From Hormiphora californensis (taxonomy: Eukaryota > Animalia > Ctenophora), in the NCBI GenBank assembly GCA_020137815.1, contig CM035357.1, positions 7,750,001 through 7,814,000 of the forward strand: 64,000 nt of DNA, read 5' to 3'. The notes beneath the pieces are model-generated. The model did not search any database. It was not told the DNA's origin and saw only the letters and a program-made list of their open reading frames with translations. The translations under genes and the position numbers were made by a program. How positions within the stretch are numbered: position 1 is the first letter of the stretch; the number at the start of each line of letters is the position of its first letter. This document shows positions 5,870 through 31,219 of the stretch, one piece after another.

Positions 5870-8800
5870 AAAAGATCCGTACTTGGATTTTGTGAAATTT
5901 CCCACGGCCATAGCTAGGCTCCACTCCCTAATGAGACTTGAAATTTGTTTGCCTAGCTCGACCCCCTTTTTGTTTTGTACGAAGATCATGTCGAGTTCTA
6001 CCTAGTGCCTACAAAACAAATTTCAAGTCTCTATCTCATCACTCATCAGAGAATGGCAGTGGAAAATTTCACAAAACCCAAGTGAGGGTCTTTTTAGTTT
6101 GGATTTTTTAAATGATCATAATTCCGGTTCCTGATGAGTTAAAGACTTGAAATTTAGAAGTTATGAAGATAGTTTACAAGTTTACAAGTTTACAAAATTA
6201 GATTCGGCATACAATGCATAAAGACAAATATACCACGTTCTCAGCATGATGCTTCTACGTACAATGATGTGAATGATGCAGTGACCAACATACACTACCC
6301 AGGGGGGAGCAGTGTAACCAATGAGTTGTCGTTGGGACTCCTGTAGCCCCGAACTGGAGGGTGATCAGGTATACCATCCAGGAACTTGCCAAGAGAAACT
6401 TTGAGATCCTCTAGTGTTTCGCATCTACGAACTTCTTTCGGCATCCTATTGAAGAGCTTGACTGACCTCACTGAGAATGATCCTTCCCTGATGGTCTCAA
6501 TTGAATCTTGGGCCGTAGTGTAAAGGTCCGGGTATTCAGCTAGGAGACCCCGCCGTGGATGAACCTTGAATGACTCGTCCACGGGCCTGGTGGTATGGTT
6601 CGGGACGAGTCCATGATATACTTTCCAGAGATGGATTATCATGAATCGCTCCCGTCGCCGTTGAAGTGACTGGATCCCCAGGAACTTGAGCCTCTCCCAG
6701 TAGTCCATCCCGATGCACTCCTCGATCCGCCGCGTAAAGAATCTCTGGACTCCCTCGAGCTTAGCGATGTTACCAATCGTCGTGGGAGACCAGAGAGCCG
6801 AACAGTATTCTAGCTTTGGCCTGACCAATGCCTTGAAAAGTGTTATCATCGTTCGTTTCGACCGGTTTCTGAACACTCCGAGGGCCCATCCAGCGATCCT
6901 CTTGGCCTCTGTTGCGATGGTTGCGATGTGGAAATCGAACTTTCCATCCTCTGTCAGGTATATCCCAAGGTCTTTTACTCCGAATTCTGCTTCGATGATA
7001 TCTCCGTTCGGGTTGAAGTAGAAATAGCATTCAGCATTGAAAGGTAGATCTCTCAGTGGCTTCGTGGAGTTTAACCTGTAATTCAGGACCTGAAACTTTT
7101 TCTCGTGGAGAGCCATGTTGTTCTTCCGGCTCCACTCCTCTATCAAGTTCAAGTCTCTCTGGAGGCTGTCCCTATCGTTCAGATCCCTGATATCTTGACC
7201 AATCTTGGTATCATCAGCGAAAGTTCCAAGTTTTCCGGTCGTTCCTGATACCAGATCGGTAATGTAGATAATGAACAATAGTGGGCCCAAGACTGATCCT
7301 TGAATGACACTGCTGATCACCGCCTCCATCCTCGATCTGCATCCTTCCAATACGACAGTCTGCGATCTTCCTGTGAGAAAAGCTTGTATCCACATGAACA
7401 GCTTCCCAGTTACTCCATACCTTTGAAGCTTTTGAAGAAGGACTTGAATATCAACTTTGTCAAAAGCCTTCTCAAAATCTATGTAGGCTACGTCTACTTC
7501 TAGTCCACTGTTCAGACTCTCCAGAATCGTGTCGTAGTGTAACAGTAGCTGTGTGAGACAGCTCCGACCCGCCCGAAAACCATGCTGCTCCTCATTCAGG
7601 ATTCCACTGTTCTCCACGTAGTCCGAAAGTTGTGTCCTCACTACTCTCTCAAATGTCTTGACCAGATGCGAAGTTAGTGCAACTGGGCGGTAGTTCTCTG
7701 GTTGACATTTGTTGCCCTTCTTGAAAATTGGGGCAATCTGCTGCTCCTTGAGTTGTTGAGGTATAAAGCCGGCCTCAAATGAGCGACTCCAGAGTTTCCA
7801 TAACGGGTATGCCAGTACTCCTCTGCAGTCGTGGAGAATCTTTGCGGGAATATCTCCATCCGGCGCAGCAGAATAAGGGTTCAGTTCCGCAAGGGCCTCC
7901 TCGATAGTAGATGGGTTAAAGATGATTTCTGAGATGCTCTCCTGTCGTTGAGCTATCCCCTCTAGGGCCTCGTCCACATCAACTGTTGTTGGGTCACTGA
8001 AAACCTTGACATACTGGTCCTGAAGGAGTTCAGCTTTCAGGACAGGGTCATCAGTCAGCGTGCCGTCTTCCTTTAGAAGGGGACCCACGTTTGTCTTGAC
8101 TTTTCGCTTATTCTTGGCATAAGAGAAAAAGTACTTAGGGTTCTCCTTGATCTTCGAAACAGCTTCATCCTCTTCAGAGTTGATCTGCTGCAGAAGATGT
8201 TGTCGAATTTCTTCCACACATCTCTGTACACGAGCAAGTAGTTTCTCGATCCTTGACGGGCTTGCTTTCTCGATCCTTGACGATCATGCCAAGTTCTTAC
8301 GAACCTTCCAATTTCAAGCCTCTTTCTTTTTAGGAACCGGAGATATGACCAATTTTGTTATTTTGAGAAACGTTTAAAGTCGGATTTTTTGAAACTGTCA
8401 CCCCCCTGAGTTTTCAAATTTCTTTAAATGACCATAAGTCCGGTTCCTGATGAGATAGAAACTTGAAATTTGGAGGTTATAAAGATCTTGCTAAGTTCTT
8501 CCGAACCTCCAAATTTCAAATCTCTATCTTATCAGGAACCGGAGATATGACAAATTTGTTATTTCAGGGGGGTGACAGTTTCAAAAAATCCGACTTTAAA
8601 ATACGACTTTAAAACAAAAAAAAGTTCAAAAACAAAAAACTGTTTAGTTATGAATCTCGCATAATTGCAGCTCAGCACGGCGCATGATACGGAATGCGCG
8701 AATTTAATTACAAAAACACTGCAATTTTGAGCCGCGCGCTGTGTCGCGCGTTTCAATTTTCCAGGTTTTAAAATCTTTTTTTATTCATCTTATCTATCTA

Positions 8801-12228: not shown

Positions 12229-13055
12229 CTCTCCAGTATGAAACTTGCCCGAGCAACAATGAACAATTTCGAAACGGTTATCAGTGTGGAAAACCTCGAG
12301 AAACAGCTGCGTGAATGTAAAGAAGAACTTGACCGCCATCGGGTTAGCGTGATCGAGCTTCAGCAAACGATTATCAACCACCAGAACCAACAACTCAGTA
12401 CAGTGACAGCATCGGTGCAGAAGGTGAAAGCCTACTCTACTGTGCTAGCACAGAATTGTGCTGCAACCTCCCCCAAAGTGGGGAAACCACTACCAGTGAA
12501 TCATCCTACTCCCGTCCAACAGCCCGGAAGAGAGAAGAACATGGTTGTGTTTGGTCTCCCAGAAACAACCGATAGAGTAGCTAAAACTACTTTAGACGAA
12601 CTTTTTGAGGAATTAAAAGAGAAACCGAAAGTGACAACGATGAAACGCATCGGCGAAAGAAATGAGAAGCGCCCTAGACCGCTCTTAGTATCCCTGGAGA
12701 AGAGAGCGACTCTCCTCGCACTCCTCAGAAAGGCACGAAACCTCAAAGACTCCAAACAGTTTTCGGCTGTTTATCTCTCTCCGGAACTTACGCCCTCTGA
12801 ACTGAAAGAGCAAAAAGCTCTAAGGTCCACTTTGAAGCGGATACGATCAGAAGATCCTGACGGCTGCTACTTCATCCGTAATAATGTTATCCAAGTGGGA
12901 TAGTTCCCCACTAACTCACCGTTATCAGAGAACCGTGCTAGGAGCAGACAGTCTACTGCAGTCCCTTTCAAATTAAGGAAAACGAGTTGTCTGTATACAA
13001 ACTGTGTCAGTGCGGGATATAAACTGTTACTATTATTATTATTATTATTATTATT
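12229..13055 (+). mobile_element. 5'-truncated copy of the ORF1-only retroelement
   Basis: ORF 12238-12903 is highly similar to the 3' two thirds of ORF 28570-29535, with the same 3'UTR and a (TAT)n tail. Absent from the paralogous site at ~30086. Confidence 0.88.
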
Positions 13056-13444
13056 AAGAGCGGACCAGATCCAAGAGCGCACCAGGACCAGGAGAGCTCC
13101 CCATTCAGAAGAGACCGTGCGCAAGGGATTCCACACGCAGAAGAGGTCGCACGCACAAATACAACGCCTCGGACATCTTCTGCGCATGGTATCCCCTGCG
13201 TGTGGTATCTTCTGGACGGGGAGCTCTCATGGATTTGGTGCACTCTTGATGGTGGTCTCTTCTGGGCGTGGTTCGCTCTTGGAGGCTCTTGATCAACTTT
13301 ATTATAGTTCACTATGAGGCTGAAAAGTTTTATCGACACCTCGTTCACCGCCTATCCAAGAAAACCTACAAGACCTATCCTGAGATCTCACACCATGAGA
13401 TATATCCGGCAACAAATAACTGCCCTTTTGAAAAGATCAAACGT

Positions 13445-15035: not shown

Positions 15036-15067
15036 TTTCAACACTACTTTAAACAAATTAATTTGAG
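15036..15067 (+). other. Spliced-leader exon relic (32 nt) heading a ~440 bp insert with an 82-aa ORF (15208-15456)
   Basis: TTTCAACACTACTTTAAACAAATTAATTTGAG is identical to the 3' part of 28474-28516 and is not followed by a GT donor. Confidence 0.8.
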
Positions 15068-15489
15068 TTTGCCGTCAATCGATCCGATAACTGTGTTAGC
15101 ATCTATTCTCTAATCTTTTAGATCTCTGTTAGGCCTACTTTAACTTAACTTACGAGTGATATCAGTGAAGAGTTTGTTGTTGGCCGGCGTGCAACGGGTG
15201 TTTTAGGATGACCGTTACGAGTAATTATGACATATGTATCACTAAGAGTGATTTTGAAGACGTGTTAGCAGGAGAAGTATTTAGTAATGATTATAAGGGT
15301 AGTGATTTGTTAGTGTGTCTAGAGAGAGGTGACGCTGTTTGTCCGTCGTCTGTCCATAAACCTCAGTTGTGGCACCTTCTCAAAGCCTGCTACAAAATGC
15401 TTCCGGCGACGGCACCGTTCGTCCTGAGCCAGCTATCGAGACGGCAGTATTGGTAACTTGGAACTGATTACAAAATTAATATACATATT

Positions 15490-18400
15490 TGTTGGTCTCT
15501 CTCTTAAACAGTAAAAATATATTTGAATGGATACTATATTAAAATAAGGGGAGGCTTTTGATGTGATCTGTGTCAATTGCCTTAATCTTAATATGGGTGA
15601 CTGTTACGGGTGTCACATTGTTCAAAAGATTAGAGAAGATATAGGGGTAAGATGGCCATGATGGGCAGTGAAACCTTATCTATTTATAGCAAATTGGGGA
15701 TATCATTACGACAGATATACGGGAAGTTTATTATCTCCCATTCATTTATTTCTTTGTCTAGTACTGGAAGAGATTGGATATTAAGAGTAGTTTAGTTATT
15801 TCTTTTTTGAAAGGATCATAGAATTTATCACACAGGTTTTTGTGTGCTATACTTTTGTTTAAATATTGTTTCTTAGAGGCGAGTTGTGATATATATTGTA
15901 TAGTTTAGGACCTATGTGCGATATCTGATAGTTGGAGCGAGAGAGCCTAAAAAAGCGATTTTCAAATATCTTAGTGGTGTCATTCGTGTGACATGTGCTG
16001 CGGAGCCAGGTACTCGCTGTTGGAAAGATTACTTATGTTCGGAGGCGACACCTAGTCTGACTTTTGAAGAATACCTAGTATAGTTAGCGATTAGATTTGG
16101 GAGCTAATAGGTTTGACCCTCAAACAGTGGTTTTGTATGTGAAGGGGCTTTGCCATTAATTGGATTGTAGAAAAAATTTACATGGGCAGAGCTGATAGCT
16201 CGTATTGCCTTTTTTTGAGCGGAAAACAAAGTCGATAATCGACTTTTAGGAACCGTTCCCCACACAGAAGAGCAGTACAAGAGATGGGATTCAATAAAAC
16301 AAGTAATATTTCTGAGAGCTTTTGTAGGAATTATTTCGCGTAGTTTGAAAAGAATCCCTGCGTTACGGGATACTTTGGATGCTAGGGCTGTTATATGGTA
16401 ATTCCAGTTTAGCTTTTCATCCATGATGACCCCTAAGAACTTAGCATTTGTTGACTTATTTATAGGTGTACCGTTTAAAGATATAGATAGAGGTGTGTTC
16501 TTTTGACTGTTATTATTTGTAAAGTAAAGGAGATTAGTCTTACCTACGTTAAGTTTCAGGCCATTTCTAGATACCCATTCGTAGATTTCCCTAAGTACAA
16601 GGTTGCACCTATATTCTAGCTCAGATGGGTTTTTGGCTTCTATCATCAAGTTTGAGTCATCGGCGAAAATAAAGAACTTGGCTAGATTAGTGGCTAATGG
16701 GAGATCATTTATGTATAAGATAAACAGAGTTGGTCCAAGAATCGAACCTTGCGGTACACCGTGGTCGAGTTTCTGGGTTTGAGAGTTATGGTTGTCTACG
16801 TGTACAAACTGTTGCCTGTTACTTAGATAAGAGTTGAACCAGTCTAAATTGGAGCCACGCACTCCGTAATGTTCTAGCTTATTAAGAAGTATTTTATGGT
16901 CTACCATGTCAAAAGCTTTGCTAAAATCTAATAGTAATAGAGCAGCCACTTGCTTTCGCTCCAGCGCATTAATCAAATTATGTTGAGCATCTAAAAGGGC
17001 GTGTTCACAAGAGTGACCACTACGAAACCCGTATTGTGAGGAAAATAATATATTATTGGCTTTCAAATGTTCGACAAGTCGCGATTGCATGGCTTTTTCG
17101 TAAAGCTTGCTGAAGATTGGCAGTAAAGATATGGGCCTGTAGTTCTTAACATCTATTTTGGAACCTCCTTTGTGCAGAGGTATGACTTTTGCAATCTTTA
17201 GTTTTCCCGGGACGATCCCTTGGGCTAATGAACCAGAGATTGCAAAAGCCAACAAACTAGATAATACTGGCCCCGCAGCTTTAAGTGGTTTCACACTTGT
17301 ATCCGAGGTGGCCTTATCCTTTAGTGATTTTATGAGGCAATCAATTTCACCAGCTGTAACCAAGTTGGGAGCCATGTCTGAGTGACATCTAGTAGAGCTA
17401 GGTAGTCTGGTACGATCTAAGTTGGTAGGAATGTCTTTCTTTAGATTACTGGCAATACTAGTAAAGTAGCTGTTGAACGCTTCAGCGACATCTTGCTTTT
17501 TATTGACAGTATTTCCGTTGTATTCTAGTTTTCCTATAGTTGTCTTGTTTTTGGGTTTCCTGTTCAGGAGACTATTGATCATGGACCATTGTTTTTTACT
17601 ATCTGTTATATGACGCTCAAAGAAGGAAGTATAGTATTTCCTTTTTGCAATCTTAGTATGTTTTTCTACAAATTTCTTAAGTTTATGGTATTTAACCTTA
17701 TTTTCTACAGTGGGGTTTTTGATAAACTTCCGGTACAGCCGGTTTTTACGGGCACAAGCACACTGAAGCCATTCAAGAAGCCAAGGACTTGGGTTTCCCC
17801 GCCTCTTTTTCTTGGTGTGCTTTACTAGCGGGAAGTTTTTGTCAAAAATTTCCCTATATTTGTTTGATATGGCATTGAAAACGTCATTAGCATCAGATAT
17901 TTCATATACAAAATCCCAGCTGGTGTTCTCAATTTCGTCACGAAAGTTTTCTAATGTGATTTTGTTAACTATTCTAGTGGGTGGATACTGACTATTACTA
18001 CTACAGTAGCCACTACTATACATGAATCTAACATTATATGTCGCGAGATGGTCGGACAAGTCAAAGTCTGATATAATTCCGGTCTTAGTGATGGATGCGC
18101 AGTTATTTGTAAAAATATGGTCAATCAGAGTGGCAGAGTGGTCTGTGAATGCGAGTAGGGCGTGAGATAAGTGGAGCAAAGCCTGCTGCTGTCAATTTGT
18201 CTATGAATCTTGTACAGTTATCAGATTTTCCGTAATTTAGCAGATCAATATTACTATCCCCCATCAGAAAAATCATTTTGTTCCTGTCTCTATTTAGTTT
18301 ATCTAAAATCAAATCGAGCTTATCCGAGAACTTGTGATATTCCGAATTAGGCGATCGATAATAGTTGCAAATTACTATATTCCTAACTTTTTGCTGCGCT

Positions 18401-19700
18401 ATCTCAACGGAGAGGAACTCACCGTCTAGCGGACTAGTGTTATCGCTTAAATCATGTCTAACTACCATGCTCTGACTACTGGCAAAACTCTGGTTAATAT
18501 AAATAGCAAGCCCACCACCTCTATTAGAATTTCGGGCAGGTTCTTGTAAAATAGGTTCATTGAAGCCTTCAAGAGTTAGTTCTTTACCCGCAAAAGGGAG
18601 GTTGGCTGGGTTGCAGTTAGTTTCATTAAAGCACAAAATATCAAATCTAGTGTAGAATTCAAGGTTATCCCTAATACGCTCTATGTTTTTTGGTAATGAT
18701 CTTATATTTGCAGACAGAATTTGTGTCTGCTTGTCTAATTTCACTTTTAGACGGCTAGATGGGGTATATTTACAGGTCTCGAGTAGATGTGCTGGACCCT
18801 TCCAAGCATCTTTATCAGACAAATCTTTTGAGTATTCAGCAACATAGGTAGCCGAGTGATGGTTAGAGTACGGGTTAAAAGTATTTTCTAAGTTAGTGGT
18901 AATCGTACTGTTACCAGGATCATCTATATTTCCAGGAAAGATACTATTACAACATTTTTTGCATCCTAGAGAGTTGAGAGAGCAATTAATGTGTGCCAAT
19001 TTATCACACAGCCAACACAACTGCATTTTGTTTCTATTTCCTAGTTTCGAGCAAACAGTACATGGTGAAAGTTTAATATTCTGCTGGGTGAGATTATCTA
19101 GCTGAGTTGTTAGTTTTGGTGTGTTGACGAAAGGGAGGACACCAGCTGTACACTCTATACACGTCCAGTGCCTAGCTAGATCTAAACTATTTAAAGTTAG
19201 AACATCGTTTGGTGACAGCTGGGCAAATCTCGCATGCATAGTTTCTTCATACATTCAGAGCAAGTAATAGAAGCTTTCTGGGGTTTAATTTTTTTGTGCA
19301 ACCATGACAACGATCATGGTCACTTTTGTTTTTAAATAGTTTAGGTTAATTGTAGATTTGAAAGATAGCTAGAAAGTTCTATTGCTTCAGCCTGCCTGTG
19401 AGTCTGGTAAGGAATTTTGTACAGTTATAAACAGACCAAGCGGCAACAGATCAGTCAAGTTTGTTAGTTATCGAGCAGAGCGTATAATTCCGGTAAAAAC
19501 AGAAAAATGTGTGGTTTTACCGGAGAGAGAGAGAAGAAGAGAAGGCGGTAGAAATAAGCGGAGATAAGAGCACGCAAGGGCAGCAGGCGACCAAGACGGG
19601 GGGAGGGTAGAGGACAAGACAAAGGGAAGGTAAGAGGAAGGAAGATGTTTATAGAATTTTTACAGCTAGGTGGAAAATTGATATGAGGTAGTTGCGATTT
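15490..19700 (-). mobile_element. Decayed CR1/L2-group LINE (PHD fingers + APE endonuclease + RT) with frameshifts
   Basis: ORF 18121-19254: Cys/His PHD-like motifs, NIRSL, NET, GGGLAIY, YRSP, GDSNID. ORF 16104-18179: LIDHIF, SDH, NYRPISLL, DFSKAFD, PQGSILGP, FADD. Frameshifts near 19250, 18150 and 16110. Ends approximate. Confidence 0.9.
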
Positions 19701-20681
19701 TTGTGTAAGTGGTGTATTATATATATATTATCCCAGACAAGCTCTGAACTCTTGCCTCAGGGGCCACACTCTCTTTCTAACACGTGTAAGCTGACCCAAC
19801 ATGTGATCCTTAAACAAATTACCTAGTAGTCTCTTAGCATAGCTAGTGATGTGAACCCCATTGCCTCTGGGATCCAGTACATGAAGCCCCGGGTGGTTAC
19901 TAATTTGTGAGAGAGAGAGAAACTAGAGATCCTCTCTTGTTATCAATTTGACACCTCAAAGAGAGAGAGATAGAGGGAGAGAGAGAGAGAAACTAGAGTG
20001 TGAGTGAAAGAAACCATTGAGTAGGCACTCTTGTACTATGACCTCCCACGCCCCGGACGTGCCCCCCCCCCCCCATACATAACACAGTTACCACCCCGTC
20101 CGCCTTTATACAACAATATGAAATTAAAACAACTCAATTTATTACCAAAAAAGTTACCAAACAAATGTTAACCAATTACCAGGAAGATGGATAAAGTTTT
20201 CAACAACACACACACCCCACTCTCGTCTCTCACTCTCTCCTTTCCCTCCCTTGAGCTACGGGAAATTAATCGAAACATTTATCGAAACTAGTTTAGAATA
20301 TTTCAAGATGTAACACTGTCAAACACATTCGCACACATCTCTCCACAGATCAAGATATAGGAAACTAACAATATGGGAATATGTCATCTCGATCCGATAT
20401 ACCGGGCAAAACCCTTTCCCCAAAACAGTGTTTGCGTTGTTCATTTTGAATGGTTTTTGCTCGAGCTTTCTTCGATCGAATTTGCTGATCGAATTTGCTG
20501 ATAAATGCTGCAGTGAAGATTTAGTACAGCAATATTTTCGTCCGGCAGCATCACAATGGGGCGTGGGCTGTTTGTTTCATCTTTCCGTATTGTACTTCTC
20601 AGCTCAGAAAATGCCTGTAACCAAGATACTGTTAGGGGAGTTAAGGGCAATTGGATTGGGGAAGATAATATAACAACAGGG

Positions 20682-20892
20682 GCTAGAAACAGGAAGGGTG
20701 ATAGGGTGTCAGGGGTTAGAAACAGGGAGGGTGGTGGGGTGGCAGGGGTTAGAAACAGGGAGGGTGGTGGGGTGTCAGGGGTTAGAAACAGGGAGGGTGG
20801 TGGGGTGGCAGGGGTTAGAAACAGGGAGGGTGGTGGGGTGTCAGGGGTTAGAGACAGGGAGGGTGGTGGGGTGTCAGGGGTTAGAAATAGGG
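20682..20892. repeat. 33-bp minisatellite (GGGGTTAGAAACAGGGAGGGTGGTGGGGTGTCA)n, ~6 copies
   Basis: Directly visible tandem units. Confidence 0.9.
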
Positions 20893-21300
20893 TAGGGTGG
20901 GCGGAATAACCTGTTAAATCAGTTGATATACAAATTAGTATGGACAATTGAAACTCGGATCCGCGGAATTATTGCAGTCTCAGTAGTCGGTTGTCAATAC
21001 TCAATAGTTGTGTGATCAGATAACTGTTGTCTGTTGAATATTTATTAGTCTCAATTCTCATATTACAATGTCGATTGTCGATTCAGCACGAGAGAGCTCA
21101 ACACTTTTGTAGCACACATTATGTAATATATTGTTAGTAACAAACACAGGCCGGGAGGTAAATTCAGAAAAACTAAATAACTGAAAACTTACATCATGCT
21201 TCATTGAGATGGACGCAGGCCATTCTTTGGGATAGAGTTTTCTTTGGGTCAGCCCATACCAACTTTATCAGTCTTGAATCTATCAAAAGAGAGATATGGT

Positions 21301-21482
<182 letters not shown>

Positions 21483-21822
21483 CATTAAATTACGCCCATG
21501 GAACAAGGCGTCACACTAACCTGAATAAGTATACAATCGAGAATCAAGAGGTTCTCCAGATCCAGATCTAGGCCATCTTCTCTCAGAAAGGAAAGTTACA
21601 CTTCAAGTACACCACAGAGTGGGCCATAGTAGTAAATTTGGTGCCAAGGCGGGTAGAGTACTGAGTATTTGATAAGAGTCAACATCGATAACTCCATAAT
21701 AACTGTGCCTGAGAGAGTTTACAAGTTTACAAGTTTACAATAAAAGTTTTAGTGTACACAACAGGCCTTCCCTTAGTGGGTCCACCTAAATAAATTAAAC
21801 ACGTATCACCTCTCAGCCACTC

Positions 21823-24798
21823 TCAGACATTTACAGCACATTGAGGGGAAATATCATTGGGAAGTGATGGATAGCCTCTGACAGGGGGACGGTCATAAAA
21901 ACCTGTCAAGTAATTGCCCAGGGATGATTTGAATTGACCTAAGCTTCCGCAAGAGTTAACGGCCGCTGGCAACCTGTTCCACAGGTGAGCAGCTCTCGGT
22001 CCGAAGGAAGAATGGTACTGATTCGCTCTCCAGGTCTCAGCCCGATAAGGAAACACTGGTGGGACTAACCTCATACCCAGCCTTGCACTGTGTTGGAACA
22101 CAAGATTTGCAGAATTCGGAACAAACCCATGGATCGTCTTCCACACATGTATCAACATGTAACGTTGTCTCCTACGTTGAAGAGACATCAGGTTGAGAAC
22201 TTTTAATCTCTCCCAATAGTCGAGATTCTGCATTCCATCAAGTCTTCTAGTAAAACACCGTTGGACGTTCTCAATTGACTTGATGTCCCCAGACTTTGAC
22301 GGATCCCAGACCAGACAACAATACTCCAAAATTGGTCTGACCAGTGATTTGAAGAGTTGCAACATTACCTCTGGTGAACGATCTCGAAAAACACTGAAAA
22401 TCCACCCAGATAGGAGAGAGGCTCTCCTCACAATGGTGGCAATGTGCTTAGACCAAGAACCATCCGAGGACATCTGGACACCCAAGTCACGGACATCAGC
22501 TTCAGGAAACAGTTGTACTCCAGATTTTGTGGTATACGAACATATGTCAACTGAAAAAGGGAATTCCTTGTAGATTGCCGACTTGTTCAGCCTGTAACTC
22601 AGGAGTTGAAATTTCTGATCATGTAGCACCATATTGTTTATCTCGGCCCATTCTGTAACCTTCAAAAGATCAGATTGTAAACCCTCCTGATCAACAATAT
22701 CTGTTATGGCTTTTATTAACTTGGTATCATCCGCAAAGGTGAGACACATACTACCATCCAGTACAGATTCCAGGTCCAGTATATAAATAAGGAAGAGGAG
22801 AGGGCCCAGGACACTACCCTGCGCCACCCCGCTGAGCACCTCCACCCATGGTGACCTAACCCCATCCACCATCACACACTGCTGCCTGCCCAGGATCCAC
22901 GCACTGATCCACTGATGAAGTTTTCCTCCAATCCCGTACCTTTTCAACTTAGCGAGCAACACATTGATATCCACCGAATCAAAAGCTTTAGAAAAGTCTA
23001 AATAGAGAACATCAACTTCTCTATCTCCACAGAGTTCAGTTAGGATGTAGTCAACATGAGATAACAGTTGGGACATAGTACTACGTCCCTTTCGAAAACC
23101 GTGTTGCGTTTCACTCTGTAACTGCATCTCATCCAAATAATCAGCTATTCTCTTTCTGACTAGCCGCTCAAACACCTTCGATAGGTGACTTGTGATCGAC
23201 ACAGGGCGATAATTTGCCGTCGTAGACTTCGACCCTTTCTTAAAGATCGGTGTTATGAACTGCTGCTTTAAACAATTTGGAACAGCCCCATCTTCAAATG
23301 ACTTGTTCCATAACATCCATATAGGATAAGACAAGCTGCTGTTACATCGTTTCAGAATGCACGAAGGAATGCAGCCCGGAGGTGAGGCCGAAAAGGGGTT
23401 AAGCTCCTCTAGTGCACTCTGGATACAATTCTGTGAAAAATCCATGGTCGTCAGGATCTCACCAAGGTCCTCAATGTTACCTGCTGCCACAGAGGGATCA
23501 ATAGCCGCCGGATTGCTGAAGACGCTAGCAAACTGGTGTTGTAGTAGGTTAGCCTTCTCCAGGGGGTCCACAGTTAAGGAACCATCCGCACGCTCAAGGG
23601 GGGCAACTGATGATTTAACCTTGGAGTTCTTTTTAACGTGAGTATAAAAGTACTTGGGGTTTACCTTGATAGCACCCACAGCCTTCCTCTCCACTTTCTT
23701 GTCCCTTGATATCAGATGGGATTTGATTTTCCCAATTAAACAATCCATCACCGATTTCCACTTTACTGAATCGTTCTTACGTTTATCAAGTTTACGCCTC
23801 CTGCTAGTCAAATGCCTGAGCTCCTTGTCTACAAAGTCCTTTCGCATTTTCTTCACTCGGCAATGTGACTTAACCACCTTGAACACTCTATCTCGAACAG
23901 CTTCCACAAACAATGAGCCATCCTCATCACCCAGATCCTCACACTCAACAAGCAGTTTGTCCCAATCAGTAGCTGCAAGGTCAGCATCAATACTCACAAA
24001 GTCCGCTGAATGGAGATCCAGTTGCCGATAACCTTCCAGTTTGCCAGGCAGAAATAGACTTACTGGACCGAGAGGGTTGAAGGTGAGGTGACATGATACC
24101 CACAGATGATCTGATACACCCTCATCTGTAATGGAAATATCGCTGAAGTAGTCCGGTCTGTTGGTGAACACGAGATCTAACGTATTGTTGCCCCTGGTAG
24201 GGCCCTCTACAACCTGGGATAGAAAATTAGTGTCCATAAAGTCCGATACAACATTGTAGTTAGGCTGATCAACTGGGACTGATGACCCGTCAACCCAATT
24301 AAAGAGTGGGAGATTAAAATCACCCGATAATACCACTTCTGGTAACCCGCTCTCACTGTACTTATCGATGAATGTCTGTAAGGTGTTCATTAGTCTCTGA
24401 AAGTCCAAAACACTCGACTCTGAACGATAAACAGCAGCAAATATGGTGTTAATCTGGCCAACATAGACAGCTTTCATATTGTTAAACGCACTAGCAAAAC
24501 ATGTACTATCAGAAACAGCCAGCGACGAGTGAACATACAGAGCACAGCCTCCACCGACTCTACTCACTCTGTCACTCCTAAAAACATTATATCCCGGTAT
24601 CTCAACCTGGGCATCTGAGTGATACCCTTTAAACCAGGTTTCAGTAACTGCAATGGCTACTGTAGGAGTTTTCTCATTTCTTATATAATCTCTAATAAGA
24701 CCGAGTTTCCAGCACGTATCACCTGCCGGACTTAGACTCCTTGCATTAAGCAGTAATATGTTACTCGTAGTAGAAACAGTCCCTAACGATCTCTCCAT
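21823..24798 (-). CDS. LINE ORF2p (APE endonuclease + reverse transcriptase), 991 aa, uninterrupted
   Basis: LNARSL, TETW, GDFN, PTR..NTLDL, SDH; NYRPVS, YLDFSKAFD, QGSVLGPLLF, FADD. Confidence 0.95.
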   Translation of the reverse strand: MERSLGTVSTTSNILLLNARSLSPAGDTCWKLGLIRDYIRNEKTPTVAIAVTETWFKGYHSDAQVEIPGYNVFRSDRVSRVGGGCALYVHSSLAVSDSTCFASAFNNMKAVYVGQINTIFAAVYRSESSVLDFQRLMNTLQTFIDKYSESGLPEVVLSGDFNLPLFNWVDGSSVPVDQPNYNVVSDFMDTNFLSQVVEGPTRGNNTLDLVFTNRPDYFSDISITDEGVSDHLWVSCHLTFNPLGPVSLFLPGKLEGYRQLDLHSADFVSIDADLAATDWDKLLVECEDLGDEDGSLFVEAVRDRVFKVVKSHCRVKKMRKDFVDKELRHLTSRRRKLDKRKNDSVKWKSVMDCLIGKIKSHLISRDKKVERKAVGAIKVNPKYFYTHVKKNSKVKSSVAPLERADGSLTVDPLEKANLLQHQFASVFSNPAAIDPSVAAGNIEDLGEILTTMDFSQNCIQSALEELNPFSASPPGCIPSCILKRCNSSLSYPIWMLWNKSFEDGAVPNCLKQQFITPIFKKGSKSTTANYRPVSITSHLSKVFERLVRKRIADYLDEMQLQSETQHGFRKGRSTMSQLLSHVDYILTELCGDREVDVLYLDFSKAFDSVDINVLLAKLKRYGIGGKLHQWISAWILGRQQCVMVDGVRSPWVEVLSGVAQGSVLGPLLFLIYILDLESVLDGSMCLTFADDTKLIKAITDIVDQEGLQSDLLKVTEWAEINNMVLHDQKFQLLSYRLNKSAIYKEFPFSVDICSYTTKSGVQLFPEADVRDLGVQMSSDGSWSKHIATIVRRASLLSGWIFSVFRDRSPEVMLQLFKSLVRPILEYCCLVWDPSKSGDIKSIENVQRCFTRRLDGMQNLDYWERLKVLNLMSLQRRRQRYMLIHVWKTIHGFVPNSANLVFQHSARLGMRLVPPVFPYRAETWRANQYHSSFGPRAAHLWNRLPAAVNSCGSLGQFKSSLGNYLTGFYDRPPVRGYPSLPNDISPQCAVNV

Positions 24799-26000
24799 TG
24801 ACTTAGAGTCGGGCGTATCGTCTCTATACTCTCGAACCTCTTGTCTAGCATCTGTTTCATTCTCACTTCCATTCTCCCGAACAGTCTCTCTAAAAAAGAA
24901 TCCTCATCAAATCGGGGTGGTTCACGGGTGTCATTGGAGCTACCACTCGGATTTTGGGATCGTGGTATCTCCGTATCCCTAGCATAGTTCGTCTCAGCCC
25001 TTCCGACACCAAAAGACAGGGTTCCGTTCCGATTGAGATTGAGAGTCTCGTCCACTGCAACTCGTCGGGTGTTCTTGAGATGCTGAAAACGACAGTCCTT
25101 CTTGAGGCATTCGTGCCTGAACTGGGAAGAGCGGCAGATAGGTGGATGGTAGTATCGACACTCTTTCCCCAGCTGACAGCCGTATTTCTTCATGGACCCA
25201 TGGGCGCAGTATCTCCGGCACATTGGGGGATGTGACTTCTGGCATGAAACTCCGTCGATCTTCTTCGTTCCGTAGCGGCCGTACTTGCACCGATTTTGTA
25301 GGTAGTGTTGGCACACCGGGATCGGCTTATCATCGTCTTTCTTCTTGCCCTCGTCAGCCTCCTCCACACTGTTGAATTTCTGACCGGGTGGCTTCTGCTG
25401 GTGTTCTGGTTTGGTGTCTCCAACCTCTGACATGAAGCTAAACCTCCTCCTTAGGGCGTCATCCGAAGCCTCACTTGCTGCACTCTTGGGAGGGCTTGCA
25501 AACTCCCCACTGGAACCCACAAACTTTTCCAGTGTGTGTTTCTTGCAACACATGTGACAAATCCACTTGAAACCTGGAATAGAGCACAGCGGTTGCTCCT
25601 GGATTAGGGTGCAATTATGGCTCCCTGCCCCACAACTTCCACAATTGAACCTGGATTTCTCACACCTTTTGATCACATAGTCTTTCTCGCATGCCTCACA
25701 AAATTGCGGAAATAGACTTTCAATAGCCATTATCAACCAGTCGATGAGACTGGCTTTGTCCCGGTACCGTTTTTCCTTTCCGTCATCAGTACGGGGTTTC
25801 CCCCCAAAGAAAAGCGCAGCCTCCTCCAAAACAATGTCCGTAAAACGATCAAGTGCCTTGAGATTGGTCTGGTACCTTTTAGCTGTAGGACTGTAGGCCT
25901 TCACGATCCGTTTCACCTCGTCACTACAGTCGGGGTCATCACATAGCTCCGACAGCACTGCTTTCTGTTTCGCTAGTATCTCGTTTGACATATCCGGCAT
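24783..26000 (-). CDS. LINE ORF1p with a PHD-like finger and three CCCH zinc fingers
   Basis: CEAC..CGSC...H.C...WICHMC, then CQHYLQNRCKYG..CQKSH, CRRY..CQLGKECRYYH and CRSS..C..KDCRFQH. Overlaps the ORF2 start by 16 nt. Confidence 0.8.
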   Translation of the reverse strand: MPDMSNEILAKQKAVLSELCDDPDCSDEVKRIVKAYSPTAKRYQTNLKALDRFTDIVLEEAALFFGGKPRTDDGKEKRYRDKASLIDWLIMAIESLFPQFCEACEKDYVIKRCEKSRFNCGSCGAGSHNCTLIQEQPLCSIPGFKWICHMCCKKHTLEKFVGSSGEFASPPKSAASEASDDALRRRFSFMSEVGDTKPEHQQKPPGQKFNSVEEADEGKKKDDDKPIPVCQHYLQNRCKYGRYGTKKIDGVSCQKSHPPMCRRYCAHGSMKKYGCQLGKECRYYHPPICRSSQFRHECLKKDCRFQHLKNTRRVAVDETLNLNRNGTLSFGVGRAETNYARDTEIPRSQNPSGSSNDTREPPRFDEDSFLERLFGRMEVRMKQMLDKRFESIETIRPTLSQWRDR

Positions 26001-26037
26001 CGTCTTCCGGGGTGGTCAGGCAGACATTTGGCTGAAA

Positions 26038-26067
26038 CTCAAATTAATTTGTTTAAAGTAGTGTTGA
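26038..26067 (-). other. Spliced-leader exon relic (30 nt) at the LINE 5' end
   Basis: Reverse complement is TCAACACTACTTTAAACAAATTAATTTGAG, followed by TTTCAGCCAAATG, ~40 nt before the ORF1 ATG. Confidence 0.85.
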
Positions 26068-26494
26068 GGGAGGGCTAATATATAGAGGGGGAATATATAG
26101 AGGGGGAACTCAGTGGGAGGGGTGATTTAAATACATTATCATGTTATAGATATTATAGTGGCCTGGTTTGAACACTTCAATTGGTGTCATGACATGGAAA
26201 GGGTCGAGGGAATGTCAGCACTTTACTTACCGTCCTTGGTGATAAATGGGCAACCCATCCTGGCAGTGATAATCCATTTTTTTCATTTTTCACGCACCAT
26301 TGTTCTCTATAGATGCTATAATATTGAAGTCTTCGTTAAAGATTATTGATTTAGGACAAAAATAAATTGAATAGGCACACAGTAAAGCAGATATCTCATC
26401 TACAATGACTAGGGGAGAGGGGGTGTACAGAAGTATACCAAAAGTATACCATGGGATATACCAAAGTATACCATGGGATCCCCCCCCCCCCCCC

Positions 26495-27900
26495 GGGCAG
26501 TTAACAGAGTGCAACTCTGTAGAAAGAGCGGAGAGAGAGAGAAGGGGAGAGAGAGGTGTACAGAAAGAATGTACATTACACACGTTACTATGTAACAAAG
26601 AGGGGAGTTTGGAGAGATCAAAACAGGGCAGTTGACTGAGTGCAACTCTGTAGAAAGAGCGGAGAGAGAGAGAAGGGGAGAGAGAGGTGTACAGAAAGAA
26701 TGTACATTACACACGTTACTATGTAACAAAGAGGGGAGCTTCGAGAGATCAAAACAGGGCAGTTGACTGAGGCTATAAGCATACTGATCGTGATGATCAT
26801 AATCAGGTCAGTGTGCGGACGTTTTGATGGTCACCATCAAAGGAGCGCACATACTGATGGTTATCATCATGATGGAGGCTTGATGCATCATGATGTTCTC
26901 AAACCATAGTGTGTTCACGTTTGATCATCATGAACCATAGTGTGCTCACGTTTGATCATCATAAACCATGCTCAACTTGCTGGAACTTGCCTTTTGATCA
27001 TGATCATCATGACCAGTGTGCTCAGCATGATGATGCTATCTCCCGGGAGCTCCCCCTTGCCTAGTCGCGCGCTCTGAGAGGCTGTTGCATATCACGTGAC
27101 CTGTACAACAGCCTCTCGCGCGCGCGAAGTCGTACCACGTGGTACATATCACATGACTACAGTGCAGCCCTCCACAAGAATAAGATCAAAACCTGCGCAC
27201 ACTAGGTGTTGATGATCATCATCCAACTTAAGAGACGGCTCCAGGGCCAGCTCTTACGTGATGATCATAATGTTCCGCACACTGTAGTTTTTTGCAGATG
27301 ATGATGATCAAAACCATGAGCACACTTCATCTTTTTAACTGATTATGATCATCACGATCAGTATGCTTATAGCCTGAGTGCAACTCTGTAGAAAGAGCGG
27401 AGAGAGAGAGAGAAGGGGAGAGAGAGGTGTACAGAAAGAATGTACATTACACACGTTACTATGTAACAAAGAGGGGAGCTTGGAGAGATCAAAACAGGGC
27501 AGTTGACTGAGTGCAACTCTGTAGAAAGGGGAGAGAGAGGTGTACAGAAAGAATGTACATTACACACGTTACTATGTAACAAAGAGGGGAGTTTGGAGAG
27601 ATCAAAATAGGGCAGTTAACAGAGTGCAACTCTGTAGAAAGAGCGGGGAGAGAGAAGGTGAGAGGGAGGTGTACAGAAAGAATGCACATTACACACGTTA
27701 CTATGTAACAAAGAGGGGGGCTTGGAGAGATCAAAACAGGGCAGTTGACTGAGTGCAACTCTGTAGAAAGGGGAGAGAGAGAGGTGTACAGAAAGAATGC
27801 ACATTACACACGTTACTATGTAACAAAGAGGGGAGTTTGGAGAGATCAAAACAGGGCAGTTGACAGATTGCAACTCTGTAGAAAGAGCGGAGAGAGGAAC
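26495..27900. repeat. ~120-131 bp tandem repeat (~6 units) split by a MITE
   Basis: Repeated GAGTGCAACTCTGTAGAAAG...GAGATCAAAACAGGGCAGTT units. Confidence 0.9.
26771..27374. mobile_element. PIF/Harbinger-like MITE
   Basis: Perfect 36-bp TIR GGCTATAAGCATACTGATCGTGATGATCATAATCAG; 3-bp TSD TGA (26768-26770, 27375-27377), confirmed by neighbouring uninterrupted repeat units. Confidence 0.85.
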
Positions 27901-28473
27901 AGAAAAGCGGACAAAAAACACGTCGCAGCAAGTGAAGAGTTGCACAAAGAGAAATAGAAGGAGGATGTAATGAGAGGGAGGGAGAGAGAGATACACTTTG
28001 GTTGCGGTCTTGCTGACCGGGTTAGCTAACAAATCAGAAGTAAAAACAAGGAACAAACTGAACAAATGCAACAGAGCTGAAAGTGAGAAAAGGCGGGAGA
28101 ACGGGACTGCAACTGTAGCTACTGGGGGTGCCAGACAAAACTTTGTTAAACTATGTATGGCGGCGCCACACCCCCATTCGATTCTCAAGTTGATTCTCGA
28201 CACTTCAGTGTTGTACCACTTTGCAGGTTCACTCTGTGACCGATCGTGGTGTGCGTTTATTATCTGAGACCCCGGTGTCGGATTGCTGTTTCTCGTGAAC
28301 AAAGTTTTATATCAGACAAAGACAGTGGTTTCTGAAGAAGAATCAAACACATAACAAGCAATCGCACATCTCCATTTTGAATTATTAAACACTGGCTTCG
28401 CGAGTCTCTGTGACAAGAAACCCATATCAAAAACCCTCACTTGAGGTTTGTGTTTCTAAAGTGGCCGTTACAA

Positions 28474-28516
28474 AGTTTCAAACTTTTCAACACTACTTTA
28501 AACAAATTAATTTGAG
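28474..28516 (+). other. Near-complete spliced-leader exon (43 nt)
   Basis: AGTTTCAAACTTTTCAACACTACTTTAAACAAATTAATTTGAG matches the ctenophore SL as recalled from memory. Followed by GAAG, not GT. Confidence 0.85.
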
Positions 28517-28569
28517 GAAGATGAATCCGATGTAACAGCCCCAAAGGGCAGAAAAACGAAACGTTGATA

Positions 28570-29535
28570 ATGTCAGAAACGAAGTACGAGGGCGATAACC
28601 CTGCGATAAAACGATTGGAAGAGACAGTAAACGACTTTGTTTCTGAAGTTTACTGGTTGAACTCTGCTGATGATCCCAACACGACAAGTATCACATCGGA
28701 TCAGTTTATTCAATGTTATAAATCGATCCAAGCTGCACCCGACTCAATGTTAACCAACGACAGTGTAGCTTCCCCTTGCAATCACTGGGGTTCGTACTTC
28801 AGTCACTGTCTCAAGGACTTAACTGTGAATGAAATTATTGAGGCTACTTCGCGTATTTTTCTCTCCAGTATGAAACTTGCCAGAGCAACAATGAACAATT
28901 TTGAAAATGTTATCAGCGCAGAAAAACTCGAGAAGCAACTACGTGAATGCAAAGAAGAACTTGATCGCCACCGTCTTAGCGTGATTGAGCTTCAGCAAAC
29001 GGTTATTGAAGCCCAAAAGCAACAACTAAGTGCAGTGTCAACTTCGGTGAAGAAGGTGAAAGCCTACTCTTCTGTGCTTGCACAGAATTGTGCTGCAACC
29101 TCCCCTAAAGTGGTAAAACCACTAACGTCGAACCACCCTACTCCCGTCCAACAGCCCGGAAGAGAGAAGAACCTGATTGTGTTTGGTCTCCAAGAAACAA
29201 CCGATAGAGTAGCTAAAACTACTTTAGACGAACTTTTTGAGGAACTGCAAGAGAAACCGAAAGTGACAACGATAAAACGCATCGGGGAAAGAAATGAGAA
29301 ACGTCCTAGACCGCTCTTAGTATCCCTGGAGAGGAGAGCGACTCTCCTGGCGCTTCTCAAAAAAGCACGAAACCTCAAAGACTCTAAACAGTTTTCGGCT
29401 GTTTATCTATCTCCGGATCTAACGCCCTCTGAACTGAAGGAGCAAAAAGCTCTCAGGTCCACTTTGAAACGGATACGACTAGAAGATCCAGACGGCTGCT
29501 ATTTTATCCGTAACAATGTTATCCAAGTGGGATAG
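28570..29535 (+). CDS. LINE ORF1p-like protein (coiled coil + RRM/CTD-like)
   Basis: Heptad region, then REKNLIVFGLQE, RIG..PRPLLVSL, LK..VYLSPDLT..E, typical of CR1/L2-group ORF1p. Confidence 0.8.
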   Translation: MSETKYEGDNPAIKRLEETVNDFVSEVYWLNSADDPNTTSITSDQFIQCYKSIQAAPDSMLTNDSVASPCNHWGSYFSHCLKDLTVNEIIEATSRIFLSSMKLARATMNNFENVISAEKLEKQLRECKEELDRHRLSVIELQQTVIEAQKQQLSAVSTSVKKVKAYSSVLAQNCAATSPKVVKPLTSNHPTPVQQPGREKNLIVFGLQETTDRVAKTTLDELFEELQEKPKVTTIKRIGERNEKRPRPLLVSLERRATLLALLKKARNLKDSKQFSAVYLSPDLTPSELKEQKALRSTLKRIRLEDPDGCYFIRNNVIQVG

Positions 29536-30062
29536 TTCCCGACTAATTCACCGTTATCAGAGAACCGTGCTAGGAGCAGGCAGTCTGCTGCAGTCCCTTT
29601 CAAATGAAGGAAAACGAGTTGTCTGTAATTAAAACTGTGTCAGTGCGGGATATAAACTGCCATTTTTATTATTTATTATTATTATTAATTCAAAAAAGTT
29701 TGTCGCGAAAACTTTTTTCAAAAAAACTTGCGAAAAGTTGCCCGGCGAAATTTTTGAAATTTTGAAAACGCGATATTTTGAGGAAAACGCGCCGCGGCGT
29801 TGCAAAATACGCCTGATTTTTAGCGCGGCTCACTATTTGCGCGTGAAACCACGATCCCACCAGATCACTCACGCAGCGTGATAAATTGTGACACCAGACC
29901 CTAATCTGAGCGCGCGACAGTGCGCTCAGATGGGTCGCGGCGCCAGACAGATACCCTAAAAGACACGAATATAAGAAAAAAAAGCGTTGCTACAAGGGTT
30001 CTGGAGGTTGAGCAGGCCTTGTTTTGACCTTTGGTGTTCTCAGTCACGGGTGCTATGGGGAA

Positions 30063-31219
30063 TAGTGAACCATAATAAAGAGCCTCCAAGAGCGGACCAG
30101 ATCCAAGAGCGCACCAGAACCAGGAGAGCTTCCCATTCAGTAGAGACCGTGCGCAAGGGGCGCCGTTACGATCTGGGTGTTTGGAGGCCTGTTTACAGGT
30201 GCGCGCTGCCAAAAAAGTTGATTCATTAAAATGGCTCTAACCGCCAAACCACTCAACCGTTTTGGCTGATTCAAAGTTTATCTGGTAGGGAATGTCAAGG
30301 CCTAACCCCAACCCAAACCCCAGCCCTAACCCTAACCCCCAGGGACGGCGCTCGTGGGTGTCCGGGTGTCCGCGGACACCCAGACCAAAAAGACGGAGAA
30401 AGAAAAGAAGAAAAAATGGAAAAAAACAAAAAGAATTTGAAAAAAATCGGTGAAAACTGCGAAATTTTGGATTTGCGCGCAGCCAGGTGTCCGGAGCTCT
30501 GCCGGACACCCAGGTGCACTGCGCGCACCTGTAACGCACGGCAGAGCATAAAGAGGGTTCTTCCGCGCGCCACAGTTCATTTTGACGTGACCAGGGTGTC
30601 CGGTTCACCCAGAAAATTGTGCGCGCGCAGATGAGTTTTTTTCTTGTGATCAGAAAACTTTCATCTTTTTTTCCATTTTTCACAAAAGGAGTTCAGAAAT
30701 GCTTAAAATCGTTTAAAAACGCCTCAAAATGTCCGAAATTTTCGGGGGGCTTCGCCCCCTCAACCCCCGCCGGGGCTGCGCCCCTGGACCCTGCTTGTGG
30801 GGGCTCTGCCCCCTACACCCCCGCCGGGGCTGCGCCCCTGGACCCTGCTTGTGGGGGGTTTCACCCCCCACACCCCCTGACCGAGGCTACCGCCCCTGGC
30901 CCCGGACACCCAGGGACTTGCTGGGCCGAAGGCCCAGCGCCGTCCCTGCTAACCCCACTTTAGCCCTAACCCTAAAAAACCGTTTGTCAGCACTCCCAAA
31001 ACACCCAGATTTTAACGCTGGCCGTGCGCAAGGAATTCCACACGCAGAAGAGGTCGCACGCACAAATACAACGCCGCGGACATCTTCTGCGCATGGTATC
31101 CCCTGCGTGTGGTATCTTCTGGATGGGGAGCTCTCATGGATTTGGTGCGCTCTTGATGGTGGTCTCTTCTGGGCGTGGTTCGCTCTTGGAGGCTCTTGAA
31201 CTTTATTATGGTTCGCTAT
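30063..31219. mobile_element. TA-flanked MITE inside a CRE relic (second copy at 12208-13314)
   Basis: Termini TAGTGAACCATAATAAAG..GAGCCTCCAAGAGC and the inverted GCTCTTGGAGGCTC..CTTTATTATGGTTCGCTA. Confidence 0.65.
30158..31023. mobile_element. MULE-like MITE with TAACCC repeats
   Basis: 9-bp TSD GTGCGCAAG (30149-30157, 31024-31032); imperfect GG..CC TIRs; empty site at ~13117. Confidence 0.8.

Follow-up and report, generated by a model that had tools for sequence, protein, structure and literature searches.

Spliced-leader exon copies at the 5' ends of LINE-type retroelements in the ctenophore Hormiphora californensis

Results

The window, by which we mean the whole 64,000-nucleotide stretch of DNA analysed here, contains three copies of a short motif, each standing at the front of a retroelement or a remnant of one (Table 1). 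A 17-nt core occurs without mismatch at 15051-15067 (+), 26038-26054 (-) and 28500-28516 (+). The 3' end of the motif is fixed, and the match runs upstream for 32, 30 and 43 nt at sites 1, 2 and 3, respectively, leaving ragged 5' ends; all of this agrees with a first, sequence-only reading of the same DNA. Chance can be rejected as the origin of the three copies: shuffled controls contained a mean of 0.04 core matches, and none of 100 shuffles reached three. Of the degenerate copies sought elsewhere in the window, the best scored 27 and did not beat the shuffled-leader null, whose maxima ranged over 22-28.

What is the motif? The 43-nt copy at site 3 equals the published H. californensis leader minus its first G. 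It equals as well the exon of a gene for spliced-leader (SL) RNA at metagenome locus L022, and the motif opens 23 mRNA-type contigs. Judged by these matches, the motif is the ctenophore SL exon, as had been proposed. The window copies are not themselves SL-RNA genes. L022 has a GTAAG donor and lies within a 778-bp repeat together with 5S rRNA, whereas in the window the exon is followed by TT, TT and GA. The earlier remark that a GT donor is missing is thus correct, and the copies have neither SL intron nor SL-gene repeat behind them.

Table 1. Features of the three SL-headed loci and of a related insertion in the window
Feature	Position	Strand	Remarks
5'-truncated sibling of ORF1-only element	12229..13057	+	89.8%; inserted without target-site duplication
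Site 1 SL relic	15036..15067	+	final 32 of the 43 nt; donor-less; heads clade-A LINE stub
Site 1 clade-A LINE stub	15068..15420	+	5' UTR of 140 nt and first 71 codons of ORF1
Site 2 3' UTR and (TGTAAACT)3 tail	21716..21822	-	no target-site duplication
Site 2 ORF2, 991 aa	21823..24798	-	APE endonuclease and reverse transcriptase; 16-nt overlap with ORF1
Site 2 ORF1, 405 aa	24783..26000	-	Cys/His-rich; PHD- and CCCH-like by eye
Site 2 5' UTR, 37 nt	26001..26037	-	TTTCAG at +1 to +6, 3-codon uORF, then CCACCCC motif
Site 2 SL relic	26038..26067	-	last 30 of 43 nt; heads intact clade-B LINE
Site 3 SL exon copy	28474..28516	+	full 43 nt, no donor; heads ORF1-only element
Site 3 5' UTR, 53 nt	28517..28569	+	4-codon uORF, then GCCC-loop-GGGC inverted repeat
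Site 3 single ORF, 321 aa	28570..29535	+	L1-ORF1p-like: coiled coil, RRM, CTD; non-autonomous element
Site 3 3' UTR and (TTA)n tail	29536..29688	+	end of ORF1-only element

The sequence-only reading had placed two of the copies at the heads of complete retroelements, and for sites 2 and 3 this holds. Site 2 is an APE-type LINE, with an ORF1, an ORF2 encoding APE endonuclease and reverse transcriptase, and a 3' repeat tail. ORF1 found no match in a Pfam search and compares at 40% with the ORF1 of metagenome element L020, which also has the UTR arrangement of site 2. In ORF2 the catalytic motifs are present, Pfam reports RVT_1 (E 6e-25) and Exo_endo_phos_2 (E 1.5e-8), and the top PDB matches are L1 ORF2p; no relatives were found in viral contigs. 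A tree, which includes no reference clades, separates only clades A and B. The 8-bp tail and the missing target-site duplication presumably recall CR1.

For the single ORF of site 3, sequence searches of Pfam and PDB gave no name and a fold search did. The best 11 Foldseek matches of its protein model (pLDDT 71.8) are all human L1 ORF1p (E 3e-5 to 1e-3); according to the model, the protein folds like human L1 ORF1p. We found 28 homologues of this ORF. An L1-ORF1p-like product, no reverse transcriptase, a tail and dispersed copies make site 3 an ORF1-only, non-autonomous retroelement. It resembles non-autonomous elements of the HAL1 type: the single L1-ORF1p-like ORF, the tail and the mobile copies are shared, and the SL head is different. 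The family is mobile, as a truncated sibling in the same window shows (Table 1); the comparison for its insertion is a host site, at roughly 30050-30120, that is unoccupied. No target-site duplication longer than 2 nt was seen in four complete or truncated copies, so the ends of the family cannot be fixed by such duplications.

At site 1, which had been left unassigned, the SL heads a 5' stub left by a LINE of another lineage. The stub matches the full LINE L007 at 91.5% over 389 nt, its ORF1 piece gives 84.5% over 71 aa, and both copies join the SL at the same element base, giving the constant junction within a family that the sequence-only reading had looked to. The window holds no further remains of this clade-A LINE. 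No SL lies upstream of the window's third LINE, at 16104-19254, although the 5' end of that element is not fixed.

Scanning metagenome contigs for an exact SL pattern returned 34 loci, a form of sampling to which full-length copies lacking the SL are invisible. At 23 of them the SL stands at the start of ordinary-looking ORFs (mRNA-type). High-copy repeats are over-represented in low-coverage assemblies, and the number of host-gene retrocopies may accordingly come out too low. Another, L022, is the only true SL-RNA gene. Sorted by their downstream sequence, as had been suggested for donor-less loci, the remaining ten head retroelement-type ORF1s: seven have endonuclease or reverse transcriptase domains, two are relatives of the site 3 ORF, and one is likely. 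The first nine are firm. The likely head, L031, does not align to the site-3 family profile; its Atlas neighbours are PHD-type at 0.90, and it shares the UTR motif described below.

With the three window copies these ten heads make 13 elements, and the SL is found at 5' ends in several families, as the sequence-only reading had supposed, from three unrelated groups: clade-A LINEs, clade-B LINEs and ORF1-only elements. The join falls at the final base of the SL exon in 13/13. Nine of the 13 match the SL exactly over 40-43 of its 43 nt, with 5' ends clustered at the exon start. Neither SL intron nor SL-gene spacer appears in the flanks of any of the 13, and the flanks tested are mutually unrelated. 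The search pattern left 14 SL bases free, and 11 or more of these match in 8/10 loci (with divergence per site set at 10%, p is about 2e-3; at 22%, 1e-8). Between subfamilies the adjoining UTRs are only 24-78% alike and the ORF1s 27-61%; for ORF2 the figure between the two LINE clades is 23-27%. No stacked or decayed relics were seen in the 13 elements up to 300 nt away in both directions, as far as flank existed (L008, L015 and L031 have almost none upstream). The SL was not found in viral contigs.

The ORF1-only family carries a second head. The peptide FQTFINYNVKLFIE (head B) precedes ORF1 in six predicted proteins that belong to two subfamilies and have differing flanks and UTRs; one copy has two changes and one lacks the first residue. 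A seventh predicted protein has only the last three residues. Head B is known from the peptide alone, and nt 3-14 of the SL could encode its first four residues (1 in 100,000 shuffles). It was not found on ordinary proteins, the protein searches giving family members only or nothing; it is absent from the window and from the metagenome SL loci, and it had no match in viral contigs or prokaryote genomes. The literature searched gave no published sequence of a second ctenophore SL. We regard head B as a putative host SL. On the family tree, heads A and B need two changes each, and 0% of bootstrap trees permit one; with seven labelled rows only, a shuffle of the tree labels is non-significant (204 and 233 of 500). 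Provided that head B is an SL, heads therefore differ between related copies, alternating on the tree, a point that the sequence-only reading had raised. One predicted protein, P0031, has one added codon (Gln), as read from the protein, between the head and the UTR that it has in common with site 3. This is as expected if the site-3 lineage had spliced at a CAG 3 nt downstream.

Do the elements have a promoter of their own? It had been argued that UTRs of about 40-55 nt leave little room for one. The UTRs are short at sites 2 and 3 (37 and 53 nt); in the clade-A lineage of site 1 they measure 140-215 nt. Moreover, all six UTRs of clade-B and ORF1-only elements retain a C-rich motif, in the form CCACCCC, CCGCCCC or CAGCCC, which could be a promoter element. 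The argument that short UTRs exclude an internal promoter is thus rejected on both counts, and it is doubtful, on present sequences, that the elements are truly promoterless.

The positions of AG dinucleotides behind the relic differ from those in mRNAs. In 7/7 clade-A elements the first AG past the relic falls between +21 and +35 (+31 at site 1), versus 3/23 mRNAs, with p 0.001, or 0.01 counted as four lineages; these elements are mutually related and their counts are not independent. In clade-B and ORF1-only elements TTTYAG stands at +1 to +6 in 4/6, versus 0/23 mRNAs. The relic itself ends in GAG, in general a rare and disfavoured acceptor. In a 6-nt layout like that of TTTYAG behind the relic, the germline of C. 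elegans makes use of an upstream AG outside the consensus (PMC4484395). The strong TTTYAG right behind the relic is retained in four elements, even though re-splicing should consume it.

Discussion

Copies identical to the host SL, lacking a donor and SL-gene flanks, stand at the 5' ends of retroelements of several lineages. All 13 share with the relics of dinoflagellates an SL that has no donor and lies where a reverse-transcribed RNA had its 5' end. Exact SL sequence, exon-end joins throughout and the spread over several lineages argue very strongly that the SL was gained by trans-splicing before reverse transcription, which was the central proposal of the sequence-only reading. We consider it highly likely, too, that the SL has been re-acquired repeatedly. 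Taken as a whole, the probable account of the three motifs is that they are SL exon copies heading LINE-type retroelements, derived from host trans-spliced RNA reverse-transcribed to the cap, with the leader re-acquired many times and not inherited from one capture.

How might such a cycle run? Transcription of a pre-mRNA would begin upstream of the body of the element, under the control of either the flank or an internal element. An AG in the foremost part of the UTR would accept the host SL; it would probably be the terminal AG of the relic or one 3-6 nt further on. The capped RNA would then be translated and copied by target-primed reverse transcription, usually reaching SL nt 1-4, and 5' losses would be repaired at a later splicing event. 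We lean slightly towards SL-headed copies being themselves sources, the relic acting as outron and acceptor. A bolder version, which we offer tentatively and think rather less likely, is that several ctenophore LINE lineages and their ORF1-only parasites have lost their own 5' promoter, that the SL exon is a portable outron and acceptor at which read-through RNA would be cut and capped exactly where the element starts, that this leader is renewed from the SL pool of the host in each cycle, and that many genomic 'SL loci' are retrotransposon heads.

The most serious competitor, which we consider unlikely, holds that master copies keep an upstream promoter and outron of their own, that SL-headed copies are dead-end processed output, and that new masters arise from unspliced RNA only. 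An exact, always current SL and the weak GAG would then follow with no need for the relic to be used again. The 3-nt junction shift would likewise follow from tandem native acceptors, and sampling by SL pattern is blind to the SL-less copies postulated. Yet proteins that read through the UTR into the head show head B in six cases and its last three residues in the seventh, a view limited to open frames. In one assembly, element contigs break 1-38 nt upstream of the SL in 5/7 cases, as would happen if the SL were common to most copies and the sequence beyond it were not. The ORFs of SL-headed copies are intact, and an acceptor that killed most daughters would presumably face counter-selection.

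Somewhat less likely still is that the SL copy, or a motif just behind it, is an internal promoter, so that transcription starts at relic position 1, the head is inherited and re-splicing is rare or absent. An internal promoter has been proposed for dinoflagellate retrogenes (PMC5585692, in the passages concerned). It explains the unconsumed TTTYAG and the lack of stacked relics, and the C-rich motif kept in 6/6 short UTRs speaks for it. However, in 11/13 copies the SL lacks one or more of its first nucleotides, and inherited heads would erode without restoration. That the same SL-RNA gene exon heads lineages with reverse transcriptases 23-27% alike would demand several captures followed by strict stasis, and the alternation of heads A and B also stands against inheritance.

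Under template switching, the reverse transcriptase would leave the element RNA at each insertion and continue on SL RNA or an SL-bearing mRNA. This would likewise renew the SL, and U6-L1-type chimeras are known products of such switching; we regard it as highly improbable and reject it on the constant exon-end join, in which neither intron nor mRNA sequence ever takes part and for which two copies of one family share the element base. Finally, elements that target SL genes exist, among them NeSL-1, CRE, SLACS and CZAR of the R2 group, and they too place a non-LTR retrotransposon beside an SL exon (described in part of PMC3636483), but site-specific insertion of this kind is even less credible here and largely refuted: no flank matches the SL-gene repeat beyond the exon and flanks differ at every locus tested, the elements are dispersed and bear the exon alone, they are APE-type LINEs with a separate ORF1 or ORF1-only elements with the same head, and none has the single ORF with restriction-like endonuclease of the known SL-targeting clades.

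We found no report in the literature searched of SL-headed genomic retroelement copies in animals. SL-relic retrogenes of dinoflagellates were reportedly described by Slamovits and Keeling in 2008. For such retrogenes, the relevant passages of Song et al. (2017, PMC5585692) propose both re-use of the relic AG and the relic as promoter. They are likewise genomic copies of trans-spliced RNA with the SL kept at the 5' end; as far as those passages go, it is host genes that carry them there (over 20% of genes), with relics often stacked and decayed, whereas all 13 donor-less copies examined here head retroelements (one likely), with a single, exact relic, in an animal host. In Hydra, too, the host SL is added to the TE RNAs of an animal: it stands on about 30% of TE Iso-Seq reads, full-length CR1 among them, and the reported passages deal with RNA only, without genomic SL copies or a role in transposition (PMC12220107).

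The same ctenophore SL has hundreds of dispersed genomic copies, 718 in H. californensis and 491 in Mnemiopsis leidyi, which the pertinent part of PMC8527503 reads as spliced-leader loci or mapping artefacts, with no link to retroelements. Our sequences suggest that many of them may be element heads, a possible explanation for these leader copies, which affect gene annotation in both animals.

Retaining the 5' end and promoter through RNA copying is a basic constraint on LINEs. Known ways of meeting it are internal promoters and self-cleaving ribozymes on read-through RNA. Borrowed host trans-splicing would add a further answer, in an animal, and if the account is true, elements could spread without a start signal of their own at the front. 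SL-headed elements also bear on the link between trans-splicing and TE-targeted methylation that has been noted, unexplained, in ctenophores, chaetognaths and nematodes (PMC12460157). Their heads would in addition record the SL variants used in the germline.

The motif is the host spliced leader

A motif in three copies, with a fixed 3' end and no GT donor, had been assigned to the ctenophore spliced leader (SL). Both the description and the assignment are borne out. The 17-nt core occurs three times exactly in the window, against 0.04 copies expected, and the SL matches at site 1 (15036-15067, + strand), site 2 (26038-26067, -) and site 3 (28474-28516, +) run for 32, 30 and 43 nt with a constant 3' end; GT follows none of them. 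A local-alignment scan of the window revealed no decayed fourth copy above the shuffled null. The Hormiphora californensis genome paper reports a 44-nt leader on 56% of Iso-Seq reads, with 718 genomic occurrences, and 491 copies of the Mnemiopsis leader (PMC8527503). Site 3 is this published leader minus its first G, and the same sequence is the exon of an SL-RNA gene in locus L022 of a metagenome scan. The source of the window is therefore a ctenophore that employs this SL.

That scan, with the last 29 nt of the SL as the query, returned 34 loci (L001-L034). The L022 gene has a stable fold (z -3.9) and shares a 778-bp tandem unit with 5S rRNA; its exon begins with A, the initial G of the published leader not being templated in this copy. 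In 23 of the 34 loci, called mRNA-type by eye, no more than about 21 nt separate the SL from the start of the contig, and an ordinary-looking ORF follows; we take these ORFs to resemble cathepsin, G-alpha, CCT, innexin or ribosomal proteins. Their first ATG (within L001-L033) comes 2-42 nt after the SL, at 10 nt or less in 14 of the 23, and their gene-specific 5' UTRs are very short.

The SL heads several lineages of retroelements

When SL hits without a GT donor were classified by downstream sequence, the SL preceded a retroelement-type ORF1 in all ten remaining metagenome loci; the association seen in the window extends to each of them, only as a likely case for L031. Clade A comprises site 1 and six of these loci, clade B site 2 and one locus, and these seven loci carry endonuclease or reverse transcriptase (RT) domains; the match is weak in L003, which is 81% identical to L034. 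Two more are relatives of the site-3 ORF. Because these loci were retrieved through the SL, copies lacking it are invisible to the scan, and metagenome assemblies are biased towards high-copy repeats.

In the window, site 2 heads an intact LINE. Its 37-nt UTR is followed by a 405-aa ORF1 and a 991-aa ORF2, the latter encoding endonuclease and RT, and its 3' tail is (TGTAAACT)n. Site 1 belongs to the 5' stub of another LINE, of which the initial 385 nt are present and for which L007 is a full-length relative; the SL joins both at the same base, a constant junction within this family. Site 3 heads a 1.2-kb element with a single ORF and a (TTA)n end. Its protein, predicted to fold like human L1 ORF1p, has relatives annotated in Pleurobrachia bachei and no fitting Pfam family; a 5'-truncated sibling lies at 12229-13057. 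This ORF1 family (window 28570-29535 / predicted proteins P0106-P0251) is very large: a threshold of E<=0.001 yields 11,882 cluster representatives. In ctenophores, many of its members are on contigs of 1.0-2.0 kb, as would fit ORF1-only elements. In four copies tested from the families in the window, no target-site duplication exceeded 2 nt. The link between SL and retroelements in ctenophores is real, family-level, multi-lineage and broader than first seen.

Origin of the SL heads

In 13 of 13 elements (three window sites and ten metagenome loci) the SL is joined at the last exon base, and the intron is never included. Most element heads reach, or nearly reach, the first base of the exon: nine of the 13 hold 40-43 nt of SL, and in two the SL is complete. 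Such joins and 5' ends are expected if an SL-bearing RNA is reverse-transcribed to the cap, and it is very likely that the SL was acquired by trans-splicing before reverse transcription. Joining of the SL by template switching fits these data poorly. So does insertion of elements into SL genes: neither a match to the SL-gene repeat nor similarity between flanks was found among the element loci. Non-SL flank reaches at least 17 nt in seven of the ten loci and 1-6 nt in three (two of which extend beyond the 3' tail into flanking DNA). Elements that target SL genes are a different system (PMC3636483).

How often has trans-splicing supplied the SL? It is exact while the adjacent UTRs of different subfamilies are only 24-78% alike; identity between subfamilies is 27-61% in ORF1, and 23-27% in ORF2 between clades A and B. 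At least 11 of the 14 SL nucleotides outside the search pattern are kept in eight of the ten loci. The SL has likely been re-acquired repeatedly.

A second head appears among predicted proteins whose reading frame extends across the UTR. The peptide FQTFINYNVKLFIE ('head B', the SL being head A) occurs in P0025, P0031, P0103 and P0104; P0052 lacks the first residue, P0088 has two changes and P0003 keeps the last three residues only. Head B begins at the same point as the SL. Its four opening codons agree with SL nt 3-14, a fit reached by 1 in 100,000 shuffles, and its closing codons could match the SL end. Known here solely from a peptide that precedes ORF1 in frame, head B is probably a second ctenophore SL variant; Derelle and colleagues are said to have found in 2010 that ctenophores possess more than one SL. 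The tree of the family places site 3 (head A) with P0031 (head B, 82% identical); P0025 (head B) is separate from this pair, and L032 and L016 (head A) lie outside. Every bootstrap tree requires two changes for either head. A label-shuffle test on the seven labelled rows was not significant. As support for renewal head B is weakened by being seen as a peptide only, on no ordinary protein in the protein searches and in none of the DNA searched.

Is the relic the acceptor?

The donor-less SL copy at each element head, or 'relic', ends in GAG, which spliceosomes rarely use as an acceptor. Three indirect signs favour splicing at or beside it. Between its head and the UTR that it has in common with site 3, P0031 carries an additional Gln codon; if CAG, this would be a 3-nt acceptor shift. 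Clade-A UTRs are AG-free for 20-34 nt in 7/7 cases, against 3/23 mRNAs, the clade-A elements being mutually related. TTTYAG occupies +1 to +6 in four of six clade-B and ORF1-only elements, against 0 of 23 mRNAs. One study describes how the C. elegans germline, in cis-splicing and in another phylum, uses a non-consensus AG located 6 nt before such a site (PMC4484395). A retained TTTYAG can also count against re-splicing, since its use would remove it. The elements showed no stacked relics. L020 has 351 nt of flank and the same assembly prefix as four mRNA-type contigs; if its assembly derives from RNA, it would represent read-through transcription across a LINE with a relic at its head.

The sequence-only reading held that short UTRs leave little room for an internal promoter. 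This applies only to the 35-53-nt UTRs of clade B and of the ORF1-only family, and fails for clade A (140-215 nt). All six short UTRs contain a uORF of 1-4 codons and then a C-rich motif; a short first uORF occurs in 1 of 23 mRNAs. The motif directly follows the uORF stop and forms a GCCC-loop-GGGC inverted repeat in 4/6. This arrangement could serve translation or transcription. The LINE clade and the ORF1-only elements have it in common despite unrelated ORF1s. A fully promoterless element, re-spliced in every cycle, is possible, if somewhat doubtful.

In dinoflagellates, retrogenes carry SL relics, and both re-use of the relic AG and a promoter role have been proposed (PMC5585692). In Hydra, the SL occurs on TE transcripts, full-length CR1 included (PMC12220107). 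The literature searched, outside which lie most subscription papers and repeat-database entries, describes no animal LINE whose genomic copies begin with an SL; this covers passages of PMC12460157, PMC9911081, PMC11067881 and PMC4664967, and likewise of PMC3795323, PMC4824033, PMC7986045 and PMC10282587.

Other repeats in the window

Features of the window and of metagenome loci
Feature	Position	Strand	Details
uORF + C-rich motif	window 26016-26027; 28521-28551	-; +	also L016, L020, L031, L032
SL-RNA gene	L022:263-381, 693-830, 1041-1159		same 43-nt exon, GTAAG donor, 5S rRNA linkage
Third LINE lineage, frameshifted	window 16104-19640	-	Cys-rich N-terminus before endonuclease, pyrimidine-rich upstream region
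5'-truncated LINE	window 6171-8283	-	related to site 2, 46% in ORF2, same 8-bp tail
RT fragment, restriction-like C-terminus	window 9831-11720	+	weak Pfam RT match
ORF	window 49658-51508	+	no Pfam match
34-bp satellite	window 37259-45083		~228 copies
896-bp direct duplication	window 55207-57119		99.9% identical

No SL was seen at the third LINE, whose 5' end is not fixed, nor was one found at the RT fragment, presumably R2-group-like by its motifs, or at the ORF without a Pfam match, which from its motifs we take to be Penelope-like. The 5'-truncated LINE was inserted into a palindromic repeat and may be flanked by a 3-bp duplication. An element at 42394-43325, which has inverted arms of 163 nt and contains GGTTAG-type repeats, breaks up the satellite. 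A recent event or an error of assembly could account for the direct duplication.
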